64,000 nucleotides of DNA, taken from IMG/VR virus record IMGVR_UViG_3300031555_004297, one strand, 5' to 3'. Under the pieces are notes generated by a model, which had not been told where the DNA came from, did not search any database, and worked only from the letters and a program-made list of their open reading frames with translations. The position numbers and the translations under genes were made by a program. Source of the stretch: a virus (taxonomy: Duplodnaviria > Caudoviricetes). This document shows, piece after piece, positions 3,443 to 12,753 of this stretch; position 1 is the first letter of the stretch, and each line of letters opens with the position of its first letter.

Positions 3443-3496
3443 AGCCAAAAATTGCTATATTTACATCATTTTTATAGGATCATAGAGAAAAGTCTG

Positions 3497-4685: not shown

Positions 4686-4823
4686 ATGATTAAAATTCGT
4701 AACACCCCCCCCCCATGTCAGATTAGCGTAAAATCTTTCACGGGGCTCTCTTCCCGAGAGGTAGTTGGGGAACACAAATCAAATGATGTTAACCACATTT
4801 CAAAGAGGGGAGGTGTCCTGTAA
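4686..4823 (+). CDS. 45-aa leader ORF with C10 tract, coupled (TAATG) to the DGR target gene
   Basis: RBS AAGGAGG 4671-4677; MIKIRNTPPPCQISVKSFTGLSSREVVGEHKSNDVNHISKRGGVL*; stop 4821-4823 overlaps ATG 4823. Confidence 0.6.
   Translation: MIKIRNTPPPCQISVKSFTGLSSREVVGEHKSNDVNHISKRGGVL
4705..4714 (+). repeat. Poly-C homopolymer (C10), possible slippage/phase-variation tract
   Basis: 10 consecutive C in an AT-rich genome, inside the leader ORF. Confidence 0.85.
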
Positions 4824-6223
4824 TGGGTCAGGCTTTAATTTCGCGTGGTGGTGGAGTTGGTGGTGCAGCAAAAGCTAAGGTGGAGATTATTGCTCCTCTT
4901 GGCGCAACACTTACGATATCCCAAGGCGATGTTGTCTTTACTAGAGAAGTAGAATCTTCTCCTGTGGAGATGAGCCTTGGGTATGGCGTTTGGACAATTT
5001 CTGCGTCCGGCGCTGCAACTAAAACCATCGATATTGATGTATTGAAGGTGTATGAAGTGAATGTAAGAGATGTAACTTATGGTATCAGTATTGATATGAG
5101 CAACGGCGCTCCTGCCGATGCTGTTACATATACTGATGATGCAGTGGGTTACTCCGCCCTGAGTTGTAACGATTCCACAGGTGCTTGTGATTACGGCAGC
5201 TGGGAAGGTGCAATTACAGGGATAATTGGATGTAAGCCTTGTCTTTATAAAGACGGTGCTCGTGTTGCATATCTCAATCCGAACAATTATGCTCAGCTTG
5301 AGAATGGCGGTGCCGCAGATATTACTTCCGGCAATGCTGGTGAAGTAATGGTTGAATTTAAGAAGACTTGGTATAAGTATGCAGTTTCTGGAGATACTTT
5401 GACTTTCCAGGTTGCCAACTACGATAGAACTGCAGATGGATTTGTCTGTTCTGCATTTAAGTCGAATGATGGCACTGCTACTGTAAAAGATTTTATGTAT
5501 TTCGGTGCTTATGAGGGCTATTCTGAAGGTGGAGATGATAAGTGTCATAGTTTGAGCGGTAAATCCGTTTGGAACAATAACTACTGGTCTTATTCTACTT
5601 TCAGAGATATCTGTAAGGCATTTGGCGCTAGTTATGGTATGGAAGACTGGGTTAAGAGATATTATATTCTCGGTTTGCTCATGCTTGTTACCAAGACTAG
5701 AGGTATTCAGGCCGCAATTGGAGATGGAAATGTCAATTCTGGAGATTTAATTAGTTCCGGATCTATGGATACTAGAGGCTTGTTCTATGGTATTAACGAT
5801 GATGGAAACACTGGCGTTAAAGCATTCGGAATTGAGCATCTCTGGGGTAATACTTATAGTTGGTGTGATGGTATCATTACTCTATCTGAATCGACTATTG
5901 GTCTTAAGGAGTGTGCTCCTTATAATGATAGTGGAGAAGGATATACTTCTGTTGCTGATGGAGCTACTAGAGGTTCATGGCAATATCCTACAAAGATGAC
6001 TCCTGTTCTTGGAGGAGCAGCAGTTGTAGCATCTACAACTCAGTCAGATTCTAACATTGGCTGGTGCGATGGCGTGTGTGTCGATGACTGCTCTGGCTAT
6101 GTTGCACAGGTTGGCGGCCACTGCAGCGCTGGTATTGGGGGTGGTGGCCCCTTCTGCGTCGTTATCGACTACAGCCCCAGCGACGGCAACGGCTATTGTG
6201 TGGGGCGGCTCGTTTCCGCCTAA
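4823..6223 (+). CDS. DGR target protein: probable receptor-binding/tail protein with C-terminal C-type-lectin-like (Mtd/FGE-type) domain
   Basis: 3' end contains the VR; motifs FGIEHLWGNTYSWCDG, VAQVGG and terminal VGRLV resemble CLec-fold DGR targets; RBS GGGAGGTG. Confidence 0.9.
   Translation: MGQALISRGGGVGGAAKAKVEIIAPLGATLTISQGDVVFTREVESSPVEMSLGYGVWTISASGAATKTIDIDVLKVYEVNVRDVTYGISIDMSNGAPADAVTYTDDAVGYSALSCNDSTGACDYGSWEGAITGIIGCKPCLYKDGARVAYLNPNNYAQLENGGAADITSGNAGEVMVEFKKTWYKYAVSGDTLTFQVANYDRTADGFVCSAFKSNDGTATVKDFMYFGAYEGYSEGGDDKCHSLSGKSVWNNNYWSYSTFRDICKAFGASYGMEDWVKRYYILGLLMLVTKTRGIQAAIGDGNVNSGDLISSGSMDTRGLFYGINDDGNTGVKAFGIEHLWGNTYSWCDGIITLSESTIGLKECAPYNDSGEGYTSVADGATRGSWQYPTKMTPVLGGAAVVASTTQSDSNIGWCDGVCVDDCSGYVAQVGGHCSAGIGGGGPFCVVIDYSPSDGNGYCVGRLVSA
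6069..6223 (+). repeat. DGR variable repeat (VR)
   Basis: 155-bp ungapped match to 6594-6748; 26 mismatches, all opposite TR adenines. Confidence 0.97.
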
Positions 6224-6246
6224 TCCCTCGCCGAGTCAGGGGTGGT

Positions 6247-6272
6247 GTGGAGGGGACCACAGTCCCCTCCAC
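6247..6272 (+). promoter_or_regulatory. GC-rich hairpin/cruciform downstream of VR (DGR target-recognition element)
   Basis: GTGGAGGGGAC-CACA-GTCCCCTCCAC, 11-bp stem with 4-nt loop; position matches the post-IMH hairpin of Bordetella BPP-1 DGR. Confidence 0.8.
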
Positions 6273-6276
6273 TACT

Positions 6277-6330
6277 CGACAATATGGCATAGCGAAGCGG
6301 CAGCGTAGCGTGCCATATTGTCGCCTTTTT
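6277..6330 (+). terminator. Second hairpin after VR, probable intrinsic terminator
   Basis: CGACAATATGGCA/TGCCATATTGTCG 13-bp stem followed by CCTTTTT. Confidence 0.6.
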
Positions 6331-6386
6331 ACATAAAATCTTACGATCTTACTTTTAAAACTTTCATAGAAAGGAGGATGGTAAAT

Positions 6387-6908
6387 ATGATTAAATTTAT
6401 TAATAACACTTGTATTTTTCATAAGATGAATAAATGTATACAGAATAAAATTGTTGTTTGTAAACTTACTAACTATTTAAATAGATCATGCAAACACATC
6501 GTTTCGTATTTGAATAGAACTAGTAAATTTATTCATAAGAGTGCTGGACGATGGCATCTTCTAGGGATAACGGAGAATCTCGTTCTGCGGGGTATGGCGT
6601 GTATGTCAATGACAACTCTGGCTATGTTGCACAGGTTGGCGGCAACTACAACAATGGTATTGAGAATGGTGGCCCCTTCTACGTCAATATCAACAACAAC
6701 CCCAACAACAACAACAACAATTATGTGGGGCGGCTCGTTTCCGCCTAAACCTATTCTGGACAATAGATCGATCTTGTCTATAGATCAAGCATTCTCGAGA
6801 GTGTTTTCTATTGCGGATAACTCCGATTCATCGAGTGTTACCAGTGTATATCTGAACTCTTTCTTGACTTCGAATTACAGGATGACTAAGAAGCATTGTA
6901 CAACATAG
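6387..6908 (+). CDS. Possible 173-aa ORF at the usual avd position, reading through TR out of the VR frame
   Basis: Strong RBS AAAGGAGG before ATG 6387; open to 6908; no Avd-like features visible. Confidence 0.3.
   Translation: MIKFINNTCIFHKMNKCIQNKIVVCKLTNYLNRSCKHIVSYLNRTSKFIHKSAGRWHLLGITENLVLRGMACMSMTTLAMLHRLAATTTMVLRMVAPSTSISTTTPTTTTTIMWGGSFPPKPILDNRSILSIDQAFSRVFSIADNSDSSSVTSVYLNSFLTSNYRMTKKHCTT
6594..6748 (+). ncRNA. DGR template repeat (TR)
   Basis: AAC/AAT-rich copy of VR, ending in the G/C element GTGGGGCGGC and CTCGTTTCCGCCTAA; lies upstream of RT. Confidence 0.97.
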
Positions 6909-7094
6909 GTGAATTCAACTCCGTTGAACCTTACCGGAAACGGTAAAATATTGCCCGTCTCGAGGTGGACTAGTAGCTTAAATGTCGAAGATCCGCTAGG
7001 GCTTGAATAGGGTTTAAACCTTATTCTAAAAGCTTAATAGACGAAAGACTTTAAGTCTTAGCAAAATAAATCATCTTAAGGAGGAAAATATTTT
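6749..7094 (+). ncRNA. DGR RNA spacer region (structured)
   Basis: Hairpins: TTCAAC/GTTGAA at about 6914-6928; TTACCG-GAAA-CGGTAA 6931-6946; GTGGA..CTAGTAG..TCGAAG..TCCGC at about 6965-6996; GAATAGGGTT/AACCTTATTC at about 7005-7026. Confidence 0.65.
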
Positions 7095-8600
7095 ATGCCT
7101 AAACGAACTGGACATCTATATGAGAAGATGCTTTCAATTAGAGTAGCGAGTGAAGCCTTTGATGGTGCTATGAGAGATAAGAAATTCAAGCACCGACCTG
7201 GTAGCATAGCTTTTATGCTTTACCATAACCGAGACTATTATATTGCTGAGGTAGGTCGTATATTAGAGACAGAATCATTCAAACCAAAGAAGCCAAGAGA
7301 GAGTATTAGATTGGATGCTGGTAGTGGAAAAGAACGCCATATCCAAGCCCCTGCTTTATTCCCAGATCAGATAGTTCATTGGTGTGTAATGCTTGTTCTT
7401 CAAGACATATTTTTGAAAGGAATGGATACATGGTGTTGTGCGAGTGTAAAGGGACGAGGTACCCTTTACGCTAAAAATTTTATTGAACGAACTCTTGATA
7501 ATTCTCAAGGTATAACAGGGCGAGATGCTCCTGAGCGGAAATACAAATACTGTCTAAAAATGGATATTAGAAAATTCTTTGAGAATATTGATAGAGGGAT
7601 TCTAATAGATAAACTAGAATCTAAAATCAAAGATCCTAAAATGATTAAGATCTGCTCAGATATAATTTATTCTGTTCCAGGACAGGGTCTTCCATTAGGA
7701 TACTATACATCTCAATGGTTTGCTAATTTTTATTTGCAATCATTCGATCATTATTTAAGAGAAGTTCTTATGCCTAAGTATGGTGTGGACTTCTATATTA
7801 GATATATGGATGATATGCTTATTATGGGAAGTAATAAAAGGAAATTAGCCCAACTTAAAGGAGAGATATCTCAATATCTTCATGATAATCTTAAGCTAGA
7901 ATTAAAGAATACTACAAGAATATTCTCTATTGCAGAATGTCCGATAGATTATATTGGATTTAGATTTTCTTATGGTAAAACAGTATTAAGAAAGAATATA
8001 TTGCATAGAGCTAGAGGCGCAAATGAAAGACTTTATAATGGTAAATTCCATATTAAAGAATTAAGAAGCTCTATGGCATATAATGGATGGATTCAGAATA
8101 CAGACACCAAACAATATAGAGCTCAGCATATGCAAGGATCTGTATATCTAGAACGAAAGAAAATTAGTGAATTCTCTAAGATTGAGCGATTAGAAACCTT
8201 AGCTTCCGAAAGGTATAAGCGGACTATAAGAATTGAAGAAGATATAATAAATCTTCGTCAAGAAACAGAGCTTGGTGATGGAGTTGTACTTATACGCCAT
8301 TATCCAGATAGGCACGATCAAGTCCGAGTAGTAGCTCGAAGCCGATATAGGTTTCCAGATCAAAACGAATATGAGGAAGAACTTAGAAAAGCTGCTGAAG
8401 AAAAGGCTAATAAGAAGAAAAAGAAACATAAAAAGAAAAAGCATAAACCTGGAGAAGCTTATAGAGCTCCAGCAGAGAGATATTTTGCAGAAGAAGGCAT
8501 GGAAGAAATTTATGCTCGAGATTATAATCAAAATATAAAAGATTATGATATCTATAGAGACCGACAAAACACAAAGGACGATTGGTATAAAGCCAAATAA
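7095..8600 (+). CDS. DGR reverse transcriptase with long basic C-terminal extension
   Basis: Motifs LKMDIRKFF, GLPLGYYTSQWFANFYL (DGR-type SQ) and YIRYMDD; adjacent TR/VR pair. Confidence 0.95.
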   Translation: MPKRTGHLYEKMLSIRVASEAFDGAMRDKKFKHRPGSIAFMLYHNRDYYIAEVGRILETESFKPKKPRESIRLDAGSGKERHIQAPALFPDQIVHWCVMLVLQDIFLKGMDTWCCASVKGRGTLYAKNFIERTLDNSQGITGRDAPERKYKYCLKMDIRKFFENIDRGILIDKLESKIKDPKMIKICSDIIYSVPGQGLPLGYYTSQWFANFYLQSFDHYLREVLMPKYGVDFYIRYMDDMLIMGSNKRKLAQLKGEISQYLHDNLKLELKNTTRIFSIAECPIDYIGFRFSYGKTVLRKNILHRARGANERLYNGKFHIKELRSSMAYNGWIQNTDTKQYRAQHMQGSVYLERKKISEFSKIERLETLASERYKRTIRIEEDIINLRQETELGDGVVLIRHYPDRHDQVRVVARSRYRFPDQNEYEEELRKAAEEKANKKKKKHKKKKHKPGEAYRAPAERYFAEEGMEEIYARDYNQNIKDYDIYRDRQNTKDDWYKAK

Positions 8601-8607
8601 ATAAACT

Positions 8608-8643
8608 ATGACAAGAGGGTCACGCCTCTTGTCATTTTCTTTT
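8608..8643 (+). terminator. Intrinsic terminator after RT
   Basis: ATGACAAGAGG/CCTCTTGTCAT plus TTTCTTTT. Confidence 0.8.
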
Positions 8644-8644
8644 C

Positions 8645-8719
8645 GTAAAACTCTTATTTTTCTCTTATATATCATTCGCGTGAAGAAAAAGAATAATTTA
8701 ATTTTCGACACAAATTATT
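8645..8719 (+). repeat. ~75-bp degenerate direct repeat (copy 2 at 9158-9232) carrying an ATATATCAT promoter-like core
   Basis: Shared blocks TTTCTCTTATATATCATT, GCGTGA and TCGACACAAA in both copies. Confidence 0.8.
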
Positions 8720-8754
8720 CTACAATTCAAAAAAAAATAAAAGGAGTTAAAACT

Positions 8755-9087
8755 ATGAATACTGCAGTCGAAACTATTACTAATCCAAAGGATTTGCTTG
8801 AAAGAAAACCTATCTCCAAAGGAGACTTCGTTACACCTAGAGATGATAGCGATATCGTTAAGCTCTATGTAGTAAAATCTATTAATGATAATCTTGCGAC
8901 TCTCCTCTATCTTAATCTCACACATGAGATGGATGATATAGAGTTAAAAGAAATTGCTATGCCAGTAGATTATCTGATATTTGCAGATGATTCTTTTGCC
9001 TCCGTTGGAGGACTGCTATGGCAAGTTAGAGAAGCAGTCCTCTCGAACAGAAAATGCACATCATGTAATATCGATATACATATCTAA
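8755..9087 (+). CDS. Hypothetical protein (110 aa)
   Basis: RBS AAAGGAG before ATG 8755; followed by a 17-bp hairpin at about 9103-9143. Confidence 0.7.
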   Translation: MNTAVETITNPKDLLERKPISKGDFVTPRDDSDIVKLYVVKSINDNLATLLYLNLTHEMDDIELKEIAMPVDYLIFADDSFASVGGLLWQVREAVLSNRKCTSCNIDIHI

Positions 9088-9194
9088 TTCAGGGTTGTAA
9101 ATATATTGAAGAGAGAAGTTCTCCAGACTTCTCTCTTCAATATAACTCAATTAGACTGTAAAAGTCCTTTCTTTCTCTTATATATCATTGGCGT

Positions 9195-9690
9195 GATAAA
9201 AGAGAATGTTTTAATAATCGACACAAAATATTTTCCTATTACATATTCCTGCGTCATGATGAATTTTGAGGCGTGTATTCATCATCGTCGTTTACTGTAT
9301 ATAAACATACGCACATGTCTCCTTTCTTAATTTTGGTTGGGAAGCATCTTATACCTCCATATTGTGGAAATCACACACCTACAACCTGGTTATCCACAAT
9401 TCTGCCTCCTTTCTGACCTACCTCTTCTAAAACTTCTACATATTACTGATCATGAATAAAAGTATAATCAACAGCCCACAACTGTTGATTAGAAATATAG
9501 TTCAATCGAGTAATGGATAAGTTTATAGGTCTCAAAGATATAATATGTACTCATGTCTTGGCAGTTTTACGACAAGTTGTCTAGTATTATTTGGGAATGG
9601 TAGCTCAAATAATATTTAGATGAGGATAATGATTGCTTTTCAATAGCCAGGGTAGAGCTCGTGTACTCACTCTACCCTGGCTTCTTCTGT
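9195..9690 (+). ncRNA. Candidate ~490-nt structured RNA with several C-rich anti-SD tracts
   Basis: Lies after repeat copy 2; no credible ORF; five or more hairpins; tracts CTCCTTTC, ACCTCC, GCCTCCTTTC, ACCTCTTC; ends at stem AGCCAGGGTAGAG/CTCTACCCTGGCT. Confidence 0.45.
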
Positions 9691-9697
9691 ATAAAGA

Positions 9698-10279
9698 TTA
9701 TTTATTTTTTATCCTATTGATAAGATATTTAATAGAATCTACAATAAGAGATCTATATCTTGGTTTTTCTTCATTAAGCAATTTATATCTAACCCAGTCA
9801 TCAATTAAGATTCCAAGGATAACTATAGGAATCCATAGGAAGGCATAAGTAAGACAAATCTGACCAAGAAGATTGAATGGCATTCCACTATAATCCCATA
9901 CTCCCCATCCAAGCCACAAATTAACAATACAACCAGAGACGAATTCCAGGATTAATACAGCACACCATCCGATAAGCAGTTGATACTCAAAATACAAATC
10001 CCAACTAAAAATTTCATTAGCAAGCCCCATAATGACAAAGCAAAGGCCTCCCACTATAAACATGCTAAAATGCGAATGTCCACGCCATAGGATTTCTATA
10101 CTATAGTAAATAGAGCCTCCTAGGATGAATAAGAATAAATGCTTCAATACTTTTGCTAATACACTACCAGGTTTGCAATGTTTAGCATAGATACCAAGAA
10201 GCAAGTAGTACGATACAGCAGCAATTAAAATCATAACCGCAATCGGACTATATCTTGCTACAAAATCAATAAGTGACAT
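9698..10279 (-). CDS. Multi-pass membrane protein (CmpB/putative ABC-transporter type IV-like)
   Basis: GGSIYYSIEILWRG..LEFVSG....WDYS.MPFNLLGQICL pattern; several TM helices. Confidence 0.75.
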   Translation of the reverse strand: MSLIDFVARYSPIAVMILIAAVSYYLLLGIYAKHCKPGSVLAKVLKHLFLFILGGSIYYSIEILWRGHSHFSMFIVGGLCFVIMGLANEIFSWDLYFEYQLLIGWCAVLILEFVSGCIVNLWLGWGVWDYSGMPFNLLGQICLTYAFLWIPIVILGILIDDWVRYKLLNEEKPRYRSLIVDSIKYLINRIKNK

Positions 10280-10347
10280 AAGATATTCCTCCTTAAGAAA
10301 TAATATTTACTTAAATGTTGAAGAGAGTAGGAGATCGTCTCCTACTC

Positions 10348-10689
10348 TCATCTTCTTTTTGTTGCTGTTTTAAAATTGATAATATCTTCTACGCAGACAT
10401 GATTAAATTCTTCACGATCTTGATCCTTCCAAGCTTTAAATAATCTAGTACTACACCTTTCCATGCATTTACTAAATAATAGCCGTTGATCTGGACGCTT
10501 TTCTTTTGGTGTTTTGCTTACTTTTCTCATGCAATCAAAATAATCAATCTGAGTTGCACCCTTATATCTAGGACGCCCAAGGTCAACATTTGTCAGAAAC
10601 ATTTCCAGCGCTTCTTGTAAGTTTCCAACTCCCTGAGCTCTTGATATTTCGAATACATTCCAGATATGATATCTAATATCAAAGTTCAT
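10348..10689 (-). CDS. Hypothetical protein
   Basis: RBS; late promoter at 10717-10728; terminator at about 10325-10349. Confidence 0.7.
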   Translation of the reverse strand: MNFDIRYHIWNVFEISRAQGVGNLQEALEMFLTNVDLGRPRYKGATQIDYFDCMRKVSKTPKEKRPDQRLLFSKCMERCSTRLFKAWKDQDREEFNHVCVEDIINFKTATKRR

Positions 10690-10826
10690 TATAGAATTCT
10701 CCTCTTAGTGTGTGATTACTAAGATGTTTGAAGAACTTATGCTATATTGGATTTTTATGATATTAAAAACTATATTCTAAAAAAAAATATATCAGAGATG
10801 GATTTCTCCATCTCTGATCTTATTTT

Positions 10827-11519
10827 TTAAGCCTCTGCATTAGCAGCTTCTGCAGCTGCAACCTCAGCAGCAATCTCTTCCTCGGTCTTATAGACAATCT
10901 CGATAGCATCTACTTCGGCCTTGGACTGGCAAGCATAGATCTGAGCCTTATACTCATTCATCTTCTGGAACCAGGGATAAATGTATGCACTAATAGCAAG
11001 TGCAAGAGCAGTCAGATTCTCAAAGCTCCAAGGAGTGCAAGCTTCCTTAGAAGCATGCCACTCAAGAACAGGATTTTCTACACCAGCAGAAACCTGCATC
11101 TGATACTGAGTGAGGTTAAGAGAAATCTCGGACTGGTCCTCAAGAGTAACTCCGTAAACCTTACCATCTGTCCAGGTAAGAGGATGCTCTGAAAGGAACT
11201 TTGCAAATGCGGCCTTGTTCTCATCCTGCTTCTCAGAATGGGCCTTGGCAAGGATTACAGGGAGGTCTTCCTCTTTAAGGAACTCACCGCTGTAATCATT
11301 ATAAATATATCCTTCGGGCGGAATAGGCTTTACAAAGCGAGCATCGCCTGTAATCGGCTTTCCTTCCTCATCCTTAGTTACGTAGGTCCACTTCTCGAAT
11401 ACGTAATCGGGAGCGGGAACAAACAAACATGTTCTAGGATATTTACCAACAGTCTCTGCGACTGTCTTGAAGTTGGTCACCCATGCGACAACTCCATTAA
11501 CAATTTGTACGACTTTCAT
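10827..11519 (-). CDS. Probable tail-fibre assembly/chaperone protein (DUF4376-like C-terminus)
   Basis: Follows fibre genes; LEWH..KEAC..W...L.ALA..I....Y...I...S..EVDAI pattern. Confidence 0.55.
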   Translation of the reverse strand: MKVVQIVNGVVAWVTNFKTVAETVGKYPRTCLFVPAPDYVFEKWTYVTKDEEGKPITGDARFVKPIPPEGYIYNDYSGEFLKEEDLPVILAKAHSEKQDENKAAFAKFLSEHPLTWTDGKVYGVTLEDQSEISLNLTQYQMQVSAGVENPVLEWHASKEACTPWSFENLTALALAISAYIYPWFQKMNEYKAQIYACQSKAEVDAIEIVYKTEEEIAAEVAAAEAANAEA

Positions 11520-11534
11520 GCTAAGTTATCCTCC

Positions 11535-12632
11535 TTAATTCGTCGACTTTCTATCTGTTTTCATAAAGATATTTAAGGCAACAGAAGTAGGTTCTGTCGC
11601 ATAGACTTCGATATATCCATCGAAAGTAAGAATTTTCATAATACGACCATAGCTCTCAAGCTCATCGACAGCTGTGCCATACTCATCAGAGAGATCGATA
11701 TCCACAATCGGATAATCAGTCTCAAGAATGCCTTCAAGAGTAATAGTCTGCTTATATGGAGCATCCCCATCTGTATCAGACCAATCATTTGTATCGGCAG
11801 AAATTGTAGCATTTAAAATAAGAATGCCTTTTTCATTGTATGATTGAAGTGCCTGAATCGCTTGATCCTGAGACGTATTCTTATTATCAAGCGAATTCTT
11901 ATTAGCAGTTACTGTATCGGAGAGGGAAGAAATAGAATTAGCTAATTCTGTATTCTTATTTTCCAATTCAGTTTTATTTGTATCAACTGTACCAGCAAGA
12001 GTAGAAACTTCATCACTAACGGCATCAATACTTTCCTGAAGAGCAGTATCTGCATTTTTGCGTTGTGTAATTTCGCTGGTAATAGAAGTCTTATTAGCAT
12101 CTGCCGTAGATTTAGCAGCATTCGCAGTGTTCTTCGCAGTAGATGCAGCACTGGCAGCTTCATCGACTTCAGTTTCAAGAGCACCAATTTTAGTAGTATG
12201 CTCATTAACAGCTGTAGACATTGCCTCCAACTGCTGATTAATTGCTTCTACTCTCTCGTCGCTAGCAGATCCAGATTCAAGAGATTTAATTCTTTTCTCA
12301 TGATCATCTTTTGCCGTAGAGAGCTCAGAAGTCGTAGTCTTAAGACTATCAATTTCAGATAAAGCCTGGATTATTCCAGACTCAAGTGTAACAGTTGTAC
12401 CATCATCGAGTTCGATTTCTACAGCTCTGACTGAGTCTGCATCCATAGAAATTTGCTCTTTGATAGCATCTGTAATATTTATAAATGTCTTTTGTGCGGT
12501 TACTACATAGATTAAACCCTTATCATAATCGACAAGCAATTCTTTGGGCTGTGCCAAATCCCTAAACTCATAAGATAGAGGTCTCGAAGGGATTCGATTT
12601 TCAGCTGTAAACTGCTTATTAGAATCAGCCAT
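11535..12632 (-). CDS. Tail-fibre-associated coiled-coil protein with C-terminal beta domain
   Basis: Long heptad region; C-terminal domain similar to the two in 12754-14559. Confidence 0.65.
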   Translation of the reverse strand: MADSNKQFTAENRIPSRPLSYEFRDLAQPKELLVDYDKGLIYVVTAQKTFINITDAIKEQISMDADSVRAVEIELDDGTTVTLESGIIQALSEIDSLKTTTSELSTAKDDHEKRIKSLESGSASDERVEAINQQLEAMSTAVNEHTTKIGALETEVDEAASAASTAKNTANAAKSTADANKTSITSEITQRKNADTALQESIDAVSDEVSTLAGTVDTNKTELENKNTELANSISSLSDTVTANKNSLDNKNTSQDQAIQALQSYNEKGILILNATISADTNDWSDTDGDAPYKQTITLEGILETDYPIVDIDLSDEYGTAVDELESYGRIMKILTFDGYIEVYATEPTSVALNIFMKTDRKSTN

Positions 12633-12753
12633 AACCTATCCTCCTTTGCGAGAATATCGAGAATAATTTTAATTAAATGTTATGAAGTTATTTTTGTCCT
12701 ATTATTGGCACAAGATTTAAAAGGAGAGCTAGGAACTGACTCTCCTTTTATCA

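Follow-up and report, generated by a model that had tools for sequence, protein, structure and literature searches.

RNAIII of Staphylococcus aureus, about 0.5 kb long and rich in hairpins, uses C-rich motifs in apical loops against the Shine-Dalgarno (SD) sites of unlinked mRNAs and carries a peptide gene on the same strand. In type I toxin-antitoxin systems, such as hok/sok and the txpA/RatA and bsrG/SR4 pairs of Bacillus prophages, an antisense RNA overlaps the message for a small hydrophobic membrane toxin, usually of about 19-60 amino acids (aa). The bar minigenes of phage lambda have ribosome sites before two-codon open reading frames (ORFs) without a conserved peptide, and translation rather than the product may matter there. 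In the prgQ/prgX locus of pCF10 in Enterococcus, facing promoters give overlapping, complementary and mutually repressing RNAs (Anti-Q and Qs); one transcript has, close to its 5′ end, an ORF for a very small peptide, together with a leader terminator, and RNase III cleaves the duplex (PMC3181467). The regulatory RNAs made by virulent phages, jumbo phages above all, are almost uncharted; few have been predicted for lytic phages, and a transcriptome study of phiKZ reported essentially none (PMC8244752). In this study, a gene-free gap of 610 nucleotides (nt; 9088-9697) was analysed in the phage genome IMGVR_UViG_3300031555_004297 (Duplodnaviria; Caudoviricetes), a 185-kb IMG/VR record with a completeness estimate of 75%. 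Bases 64001-128000 of this record form the stretch of 64,000 nt referred to here as the window, and all positions are those of the window. The favoured reading, to which a probability of about 0.5 is given, is that the gap holds a convergent early sense/antisense pair, composed of a folded non-coding RNA from the plus strand and a micro-ORF message from the minus strand, which would control each other.

Promoter B2, a copy of the early-type promoter of the small gene on the left of the gap, would drive a non-coding plus-strand RNA of about 490 nt, predicted to fold into a long nested structure (helices P1, P5 and P6, with P2, G and P4 as side hairpins) and to end at hairpin K. Inside the gene for this RNA lies promoter H, which shares the class of B2 and has the opposite direction; it would give a minus-strand RNA of about 430 nt ending at hairpin A, in which a structured leader would be followed by two ribosome sites with a tiny ORF after each. 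The two RNAs would be complementary over about 340 nt. The most likely mechanism would be pairing in cis that blocks translation of the micro-ORFs; the duplex would also expose both RNAs to double-strand cleavage, and the converging polymerases would interfere with each other. Positions of all features are given in Table 1.

Among the described systems, prgQ/prgX is the closest in layout, sharing with the phage locus the facing promoters and the complementary transcripts, both predicted here; reciprocal regulation is a proposal for the phage locus. The phage locus differs in having no repressor protein gene, its products being non-coding or tiny ORFs, in the extent of the overlap, in its phage early-type promoters, and in the elaborate long-range fold of one partner, which reaches past the overlap. 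Comparative support was found on both strands, behind promoters of the class that the phage polymerase probably uses first. If confirmed, the locus would clearly exemplify control by antisense RNA or convergent transcription among the early genes of a giant phage. It would also offer a candidate for a new family of structured RNAs and an instance of peptides of about 10 residues being conserved.

The gap is flanked on the left by a plus-strand gene for a 110-aa protein (8755-9087) and on the right by a minus-strand gene for a CmpB-like membrane protein (9698-10279). It lies between the same two genes in every syntenic relative, measuring 562-708 nt, and no gene was called inside it. Contigs of the relatives were reached through homologues of a reverse transcriptase (RT) encoded upstream and of the 110-aa protein in a large protein collection (gaps of 574-708 nt), and lineage L089 (gap of 562 nt) was added from IMG/VR by a protein search of jumbo-phage records. 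The comparison set comprised nine distinct sequences from about eight lineages, most pairs being only 49-62% identical. In the near group, identity of the gap to the window was 0.85-0.86, against 0.78-0.85 for the flanking coding genes; in the far groups the values were about 0.49-0.57 and 0.49-0.69, respectively. The gap is conserved as strongly as the genes on its two sides.

No SD-led ORF was found on the plus strand, and no ORF of at least 30 aa keeps its position or strand among the relatives, in agreement with a preliminary description of the region, made from the window sequence, that had seen no credible gene there. With no gene called in the gap of any genome, a decayed gene or a meaningless spacer could be considered, and that description had itself named a decayed gene as a finding that would overturn it. 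This explanation is hardly credible: the gap is conserved like the neighbouring genes over eight lineages, compensatory changes keep its helices, and no frame is open across the lineages.

The proposal of a structured non-coding RNA on the plus strand, made in the preliminary description, was supported. In the window, folding of the plus strand gave a z-score of -5.96 against dinucleotide shuffles, compared with -3.65 for the minus strand, and plus-strand values in five relatives were from -5 to -10.6. RNAalifold, run on a plain sequence-only MAFFT alignment, recovered hairpins A and K and the long-range helices P1 and P5. Helix tables were taken from a sequence-only alignment and from a helix finder that scores G-U and A-C alike. 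On the sequence-only alignment, 90.6% of the cells of P1 and P5 were paired, a value reached by none of 500 shuffles and compared with 37-52% for slid controls, and compensatory changes occurred at 8 of the 16 pairs. P5 alone showed such changes at four of its six pairs, using Watson-Crick pairs only. Two adjacent pairs of P1 are G-U in five of eight sequences. Tallies of G-U against A-C from the helix finder were 14 to 3 for P1 and 5 to 0 for P2, with the other helices balanced. The consensus fold had an energy of -37.7 kcal/mol on the plus strand; the minus-strand fold, at -28.1 kcal/mol, was weaker and lacked P1 and P5. The 3′ arm of P5 sits in the spacer that separates the -35-like part of promoter H from its -10-like part. 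Relative to the start at H, P4, K and the 3′ arms of P1 and P5 are all upstream, and so can be part only of a plus-strand RNA or of read-through from the membrane-protein operon.

The local hairpins noted earlier (C, P2, G and P4) and the terminal 13-bp stem, hairpin K, were all found again. Every lineage has C, P2, G, P4 and K in corresponding places, their stem sequences being unrelated, and the loop motifs of P4 and K are kept. The tail of K has 5-8 U in 10 positions on the plus side in most lineages, compared with 3-6 in 10 on the minus side. A loop-loop pairing between P4 and K was considered by eye and rejected, as it is not kept across lineages.

The upstream region of the 110-aa gene was confirmed to be duplicated at the left of the gap (8645-8727 and 9158-9240; 81% identity over 83 nt; within-genome BLAST E value of 2e-16). 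The duplicated promoter fits the early-promoter consensus of the Bacillus jumbo phage AR9, an AT-rich 13-mer followed by 6 nt and a G at +1 (PMC5312081), and the early timing suggested before is thus plausible. An oriented AT-rich motif matching this consensus recurs ahead of genes in the phage genome, with the same architecture of AT-rich core, six bases and G+1 and enrichment upstream of genes. The pattern of a 9-mer core plus N6-G had 10 strict matches in the genome, eight of them in the non-coding 9.4%, and seven of these eight point at the next gene. The phage also carries two RNA polymerase beta-like genes, a pattern seen in jumbo phages with a virion and a non-virion polymerase; by analogy, the virion polymerase would recognize the promoters of the locus. 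Copies of the motif, almost all intergenic and directed toward the next gene, were located at 3465, 4625, 18989, 21719, 25963, 41077, 54828, 62725 and further sites, and these provide a first map of early transcription units. The early-type promoter at 3465, which has a GTAAA element, points leftward.

B1 (ahead of the 110-aa gene), B2 and H have a common plan of GTAAA, a 17-nt spacer, a core with one mismatch, N6 and G. They thus resemble the AR9 early promoters in core, six-base interval, start G and enrichment of the class before genes, and differ from them in the single core mismatch in each and in the upstream GTAAA, which is outside the AR9 consensus. Of eight relatives tested, seven (L076 among them) have a B1-type element ahead of the small gene; L072 was missed by the strict pattern. 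B2 points into the gap and is kept in eight of the nine sequences, and H is conserved in all relatives. B2 and H face each other 338 nt apart, so that promoters with overlapping predicted transcripts are present on both strands; if both fire, an antisense pair would result, as far as sequence evidence goes. A search of IMG/VR with the H-block pattern showed that the GTAAA-spacer-core-N6-GAGA arrangement fronts ordinary genes in five other jumbo-phage contigs; these matches were rejected as copies of the element, being other promoters of the same class. The predicted B1 transcript has a leader hairpin (approximately 8689-8722) corresponding to that behind B2, in which the stems differ and stay paired and the 12-nt loop is nearly identical. 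The shared hairpin may be a stabilising or protein-binding 5′ element.

Within the predicted overlap, the minus strand carries two ribosome sites with start codons, from which translation is predicted. In every lineage, SD1 lies 5-9 nt before an ATG or GTG that opens an ORF of 8-15 codons (11-15 outside the lineage of the window), and the N-terminus MDN[Q/E]x[V/T]G is conserved throughout. The ratio of nonsynonymous to synonymous changes (pN/pS) in the ORF1 frame was 0.36, the lowest of the six frames, the other five having values of 0.74-1.57. The glycine codon uses three different third bases, and in one lineage the fourth codon has a two-base change that keeps a similar residue (Q to E). 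Outside the group of the window, the tail of ORF1 is acidic (19 of 31 residues; P = 2e-10), giving a three-base periodicity that RNA structure would not produce. The start of ORF1 is buried in P2. Reassignment of a stop codon was rejected, since the relatives close ORF1 with TGA, TAG or TAA and the standard code gives a coding fraction of 91% for the genome. SD2 is the most conserved block of the locus, its complement being the plus-strand stretch 9317-9327; in all lineages it is followed within 2-11 nt by an ATG and an ORF2 of 7-22 codons.

In six of seven lineages, the A-run preceding hairpin A gives a minus-strand tail of U8-9. In most relatives, A would thus be a strong terminator in the minus direction, as expected if the minus RNA must stop before the small gene. 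The tail of hairpin G resembles a terminator or attenuator in the group of the window and in L073/L079, L077 and L089, and not in L072, L076 and L082. P6 and a local hairpin over an SD-like site have wobble pairs of the minus-strand type.

These features could belong to a locus working from the minus strand only, in which tiny peptides would be encoded at the 3′ end of a late membrane-protein operon or in a small operon driven by H, with too little plus-strand RNA made to be useful. Since K lacks a minus-strand U-tail, transcription could plausibly run on from the membrane-protein gene; A would then terminate strongly, ORF1 and both ribosome sites are conserved, P5 is all Watson-Crick, and the P6 wobbles are of the minus type. 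On such a transcript, however, the two adjacent G-U pairs of P1 would become C-A mismatches in five of eight sequences and P2 would lose five pairs; moreover, B2, the copy of a working promoter type, is kept in nearly all the sequences, and the tail of K is U-rich on the plus side. The minus-only explanation is accordingly quite improbable. The preliminary description had regarded minus-only transcription with translated micro-ORFs as fatal to its own proposal; the evidence for the micro-ORFs turned out to be good, whereas the plus-specific G-U pairs contradict transcription from the minus strand alone.

The four C-rich tracts reported earlier are present (9317-9327, 9352-9359, 9404-9414 and 9420-9428). 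They had been taken to indicate an early, RNAIII-like RNA acting in trans, in which unpaired tracts would block the SD sites of many mRNAs, plausibly of the host (or, as also considered here, of the phage). This use is improbable: two tracts complement SD1 and SD2 exactly, the conserved sites ahead of the minus-strand start codons and downstream of the convergent promoter, and the simplest account of the 'anti-SD' tracts is that they reflect ribosome sites of the other strand. The two main tracts were predicted to be somewhat more accessible than average in the nine sequences (mean unpaired probability of about 0.6 versus 0.4 overall; range, 0.33-0.95), and the tract sequence would pair with any strong ribosome site of the Gram-positive type. 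Of the other two tracts, 9352-9359 is paired within P1 and 9420-9428 lies beside P6; none of the tracts is in an apical hairpin loop. Across the 185-kb phage genome, complementarity of the plus RNA elsewhere was at most 14 nt, which is the chance level, and only two matches, each of 12 nt, involved the ribosome sites of other genes; no unlinked target with extended ribosome-site complementarity was found in that genome, nor a second target for the block around the first codons of ORF1. The phage RNA is thus like RNAIII in its length of about 0.5 kb, many hairpins, C-rich stretches and a small peptide associated with the locus, and unlike it in that the tracts lie between or inside helices and mirror opposite-strand ribosome sites, with no unlinked target in the phage genome. 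As a caution, strings of 'anti-SD' motifs in apparently empty regions should first be read on the opposite strand. A second copy of the ORF1 start (12 nt) elsewhere in the genome was rejected as a chance match, as it falls within an HNH-type gene and is not in its frame. Pursuit of this match brought to notice a reading frame of the HNH type, resembling a homing endonuclease, outside the window (G000:C1:3300-3620).

Several observations weigh against the favoured sense/antisense reading. The AR9 virion polymerase has been reported to be sensitive to single deviations (PMC5312081); H and B2 are each one base off the strict core, and of the 18 matches in the genome to the one-mismatch pattern fitting H, 15 are intragenic. 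L076 lacks B2 and still keeps the fold. Whole-sequence minimum free energies and z-scores separate the two strands only weakly, as does the genome-wide G-U count (45 versus 24). ORF1 is very short, and its acidic tail is lost in the group of the window. The ORF2 peptide is not conserved; because SD2 is conserved all the same, translation itself or ribosome binding may be what matters at ORF2. Finally, the conserved fold beyond the overlap (P4, K with its conserved loop, and the P1 and P5 arms) exceeds what a plain antisense RNA needs, and the plus RNA may therefore serve an independent function.

Two related explanations start from this last point. As a tentative alternative, the plus RNA may be autonomous and work with proteins (the small barrel protein, ribosomes or the phage polymerase), the minus-strand features being secondary or tuning its level. 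The long-range covarying helices and the conserved loops outside the overlap suit this explanation, as does the adjacent 110-aa gene with its promoter of the same type. The product of this presumably early gene had no match in Pfam or PHROGs; its model is a five-strand small barrel with a helix (predicted local distance difference test score, 78.6), weakly resembling SH3/KOW/Tudor barrels, ribosomal barrel proteins, NusG KOW domains and the OLE-RNA-binding protein OapB, and it could be an RNA-binding partner. These structural matches are, however, weak and generic (Foldseek E values of at least 0.013; the best Z, 8.7, was to a specificity factor of Lon protease). In addition, an autonomous plus RNA would leave unexplained why ORF1 has codon-like conservation and an acidic tail, and no Rfam match was found. 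Somewhat unlikely, too, is that the plus transcript represents a new structured phage RNA family of about 0.5 kb with its own job, to which the micro-ORF transcript would be an antagonist or timer. Such an RNA might form a particle with the small-barrel protein, or serve as a decoy for ribosomes, through the anti-SD tracts, or for the virion RNA polymerase. The internal loop between P5 and P6 holds an RNA copy of the template strand of an early promoter, which supports the idea of a polymerase decoy.

Another possibility considered was that the locus acts as DNA, for example as a replication origin, a packaging site or an array for protein binding; it is AT-rich and contains several inverted repeats, and promoter-like sites occur on each strand. 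This is very unlikely: the strand-specific G-U pairs and the codon-level pattern point to RNA and peptide, the convergent junction is at a local maximum, not a minimum, of the cumulative GC skew, and no iterated short repeats are present.

The locus is not a member of any defined family. It resembles type I toxin-antitoxin systems in its small-ORF message with an overlapping antisense RNA, structure-sequestered start and long-range pairing. It differs from them in that its long-range fold is on the non-coding partner and its peptides, of 7-22 residues, are acidic or basic; neither ORF1 (8-15 aa, acidic) nor ORF2 (7-22 aa, basic, not conserved) corresponds to a type I toxin. The ribosome sites with ORFs of a few codons recall the lambda bar minigenes, from which the locus is distinguished by the conserved N-terminus of ORF1. 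Like GOLLD and ROOL of Rfam, the plus RNA is several hundred nt long, multi-helix, supported by covariation and phage-borne; unlike them, it has a functional-looking antisense strand, and the only GOLLD row scored 9 bits against a cut-off of 150. No match to any Rfam family, with 6S, GOLLD, ROOL, group I/II introns and riboswitches among those covered, reached the gathering score in the whole window, and at E values up to 10 the region gave only hairpin-type rows far below their thresholds. No tRNA or tmRNA was found in the region.

Table 1 Features of the gap and its surroundings in the window
Feature	Position	Strand	Remarks
Predicted structured non-coding RNA, about 490 nt	9195-9690	+	B2 start to just past hairpin K
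Predicted minus RNA, about 430 nt	9100-9533	-	H to hairpin A; would carry ORF1 and ORF2; overlaps the plus RNA at 9195-9533
Promoter B1, original copy	8644-8682	+	Ahead of 110-aa gene; GTAAA, 17-nt spacer, -10-like 9-mer 8667-8675, 6 nt, G+1 8682
Promoter B2, duplicated copy	9157-9195	+	GTAAA 9158-9162, -10-like 9-mer 9180-9188, predicted +1 G 9195
Promoter H	9533-9571	-	GTAAA 9570-9566, -10-like 9-mer 9548-9540, predicted +1 9533; architecture and spacing as B1/B2
5′ leader hairpin	9202-9235	+	Common to B1 transcript; stems differ, 12-nt loop conserved; read from sequence
Hairpin A	9105-9141	either	15-bp bidirectional terminator after 110-aa gene; stems covary
Hairpin C	9252-9290	either	Hairpin at this position in every lineage, stem sequences unrelated
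Helix P1	5′ arm 9337-9357, 3′ arm 9622-9643	+	Long-range, covaries
Hairpin P2	9361-9400	+	Invariant 3′ arm, lineage-specific 5′ arms; encloses minus-strand ORF1 start
Helix P5	5′ arm 9402-9406, 3′ arm 9560-9564	+	5′ arm directly before the anti-SD1 tract
Helix P6	5′ arm 9415-9420, 3′ arm 9526-9531	either	3′ arm is +3 to +8 of H-started RNA
Hairpin G and tail	9453-9491	either	Hairpin 9465-9491; minus-strand U-rich tail 9464 to 9453
Hairpin P4	9585-9614	+	Stems covary, purine-rich loop conserved
Hairpin K	9645-9682	+	13-bp stem covaries, loop motif conserved
Micro-ORF1	9371-9397	-	GTG start, 8 codons in window; SD1 9405-9410
Micro-ORF2	9282-9308	-	8 codons in window; alternative 20-codon frame 9316 to 9254
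DGR variable repeat	6069-6226		At end of 466-aa target gene
DGR template repeat	6594-6751		Mismatches to variable repeat at template adenines
DGR reverse transcriptase	7095-8600		501 aa, RVT_1, long lysine-rich C-terminal extension

Genome-wide, the gap ranks among the longest non-coding stretches. Just upstream of it, a complete diversity-generating retroelement (DGR) occupies 4823-8600. The cassette is kept in the close relatives, and its RT diverges faster (61-88% aa identity) than the downstream gap. The gap element is absent from L075, which has a related RT and a different gene order; it is therefore not tied to the DGR and belongs to the junction of the small gene and the membrane-protein gene.

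In blastn against phage GenBank sequences, the region had no match and nothing relevant was returned for 4800-12700. Searches of IMG/VR with protein words from the 110-aa protein, the RT and a 365-aa neighbour, and with the exact B-element pattern, gave no relatives. The 62 loci of the membrane protein were rejected as relatives, being from unrelated 40-kb phages, and the pattern of a ribosome site plus the first four ORF1 codons proved unspecific, with the element in 0 of 119 loci. A pattern scan of metagenomes gave 28 loci, only one of which, L212, an L066-like sequence, was genuine. Among the relatives, L073 (approximately 7360-7460) and L079 (approximately 5945-6040) have an insertion of about 95 nt, with its own hairpin, between P4 and the 3′ arm of P1. 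In L073 the insertion contains an extra C-rich tract; its complement, read on the minus strand, gives a ribosome site with a start codon behind it, after which comes a stop.

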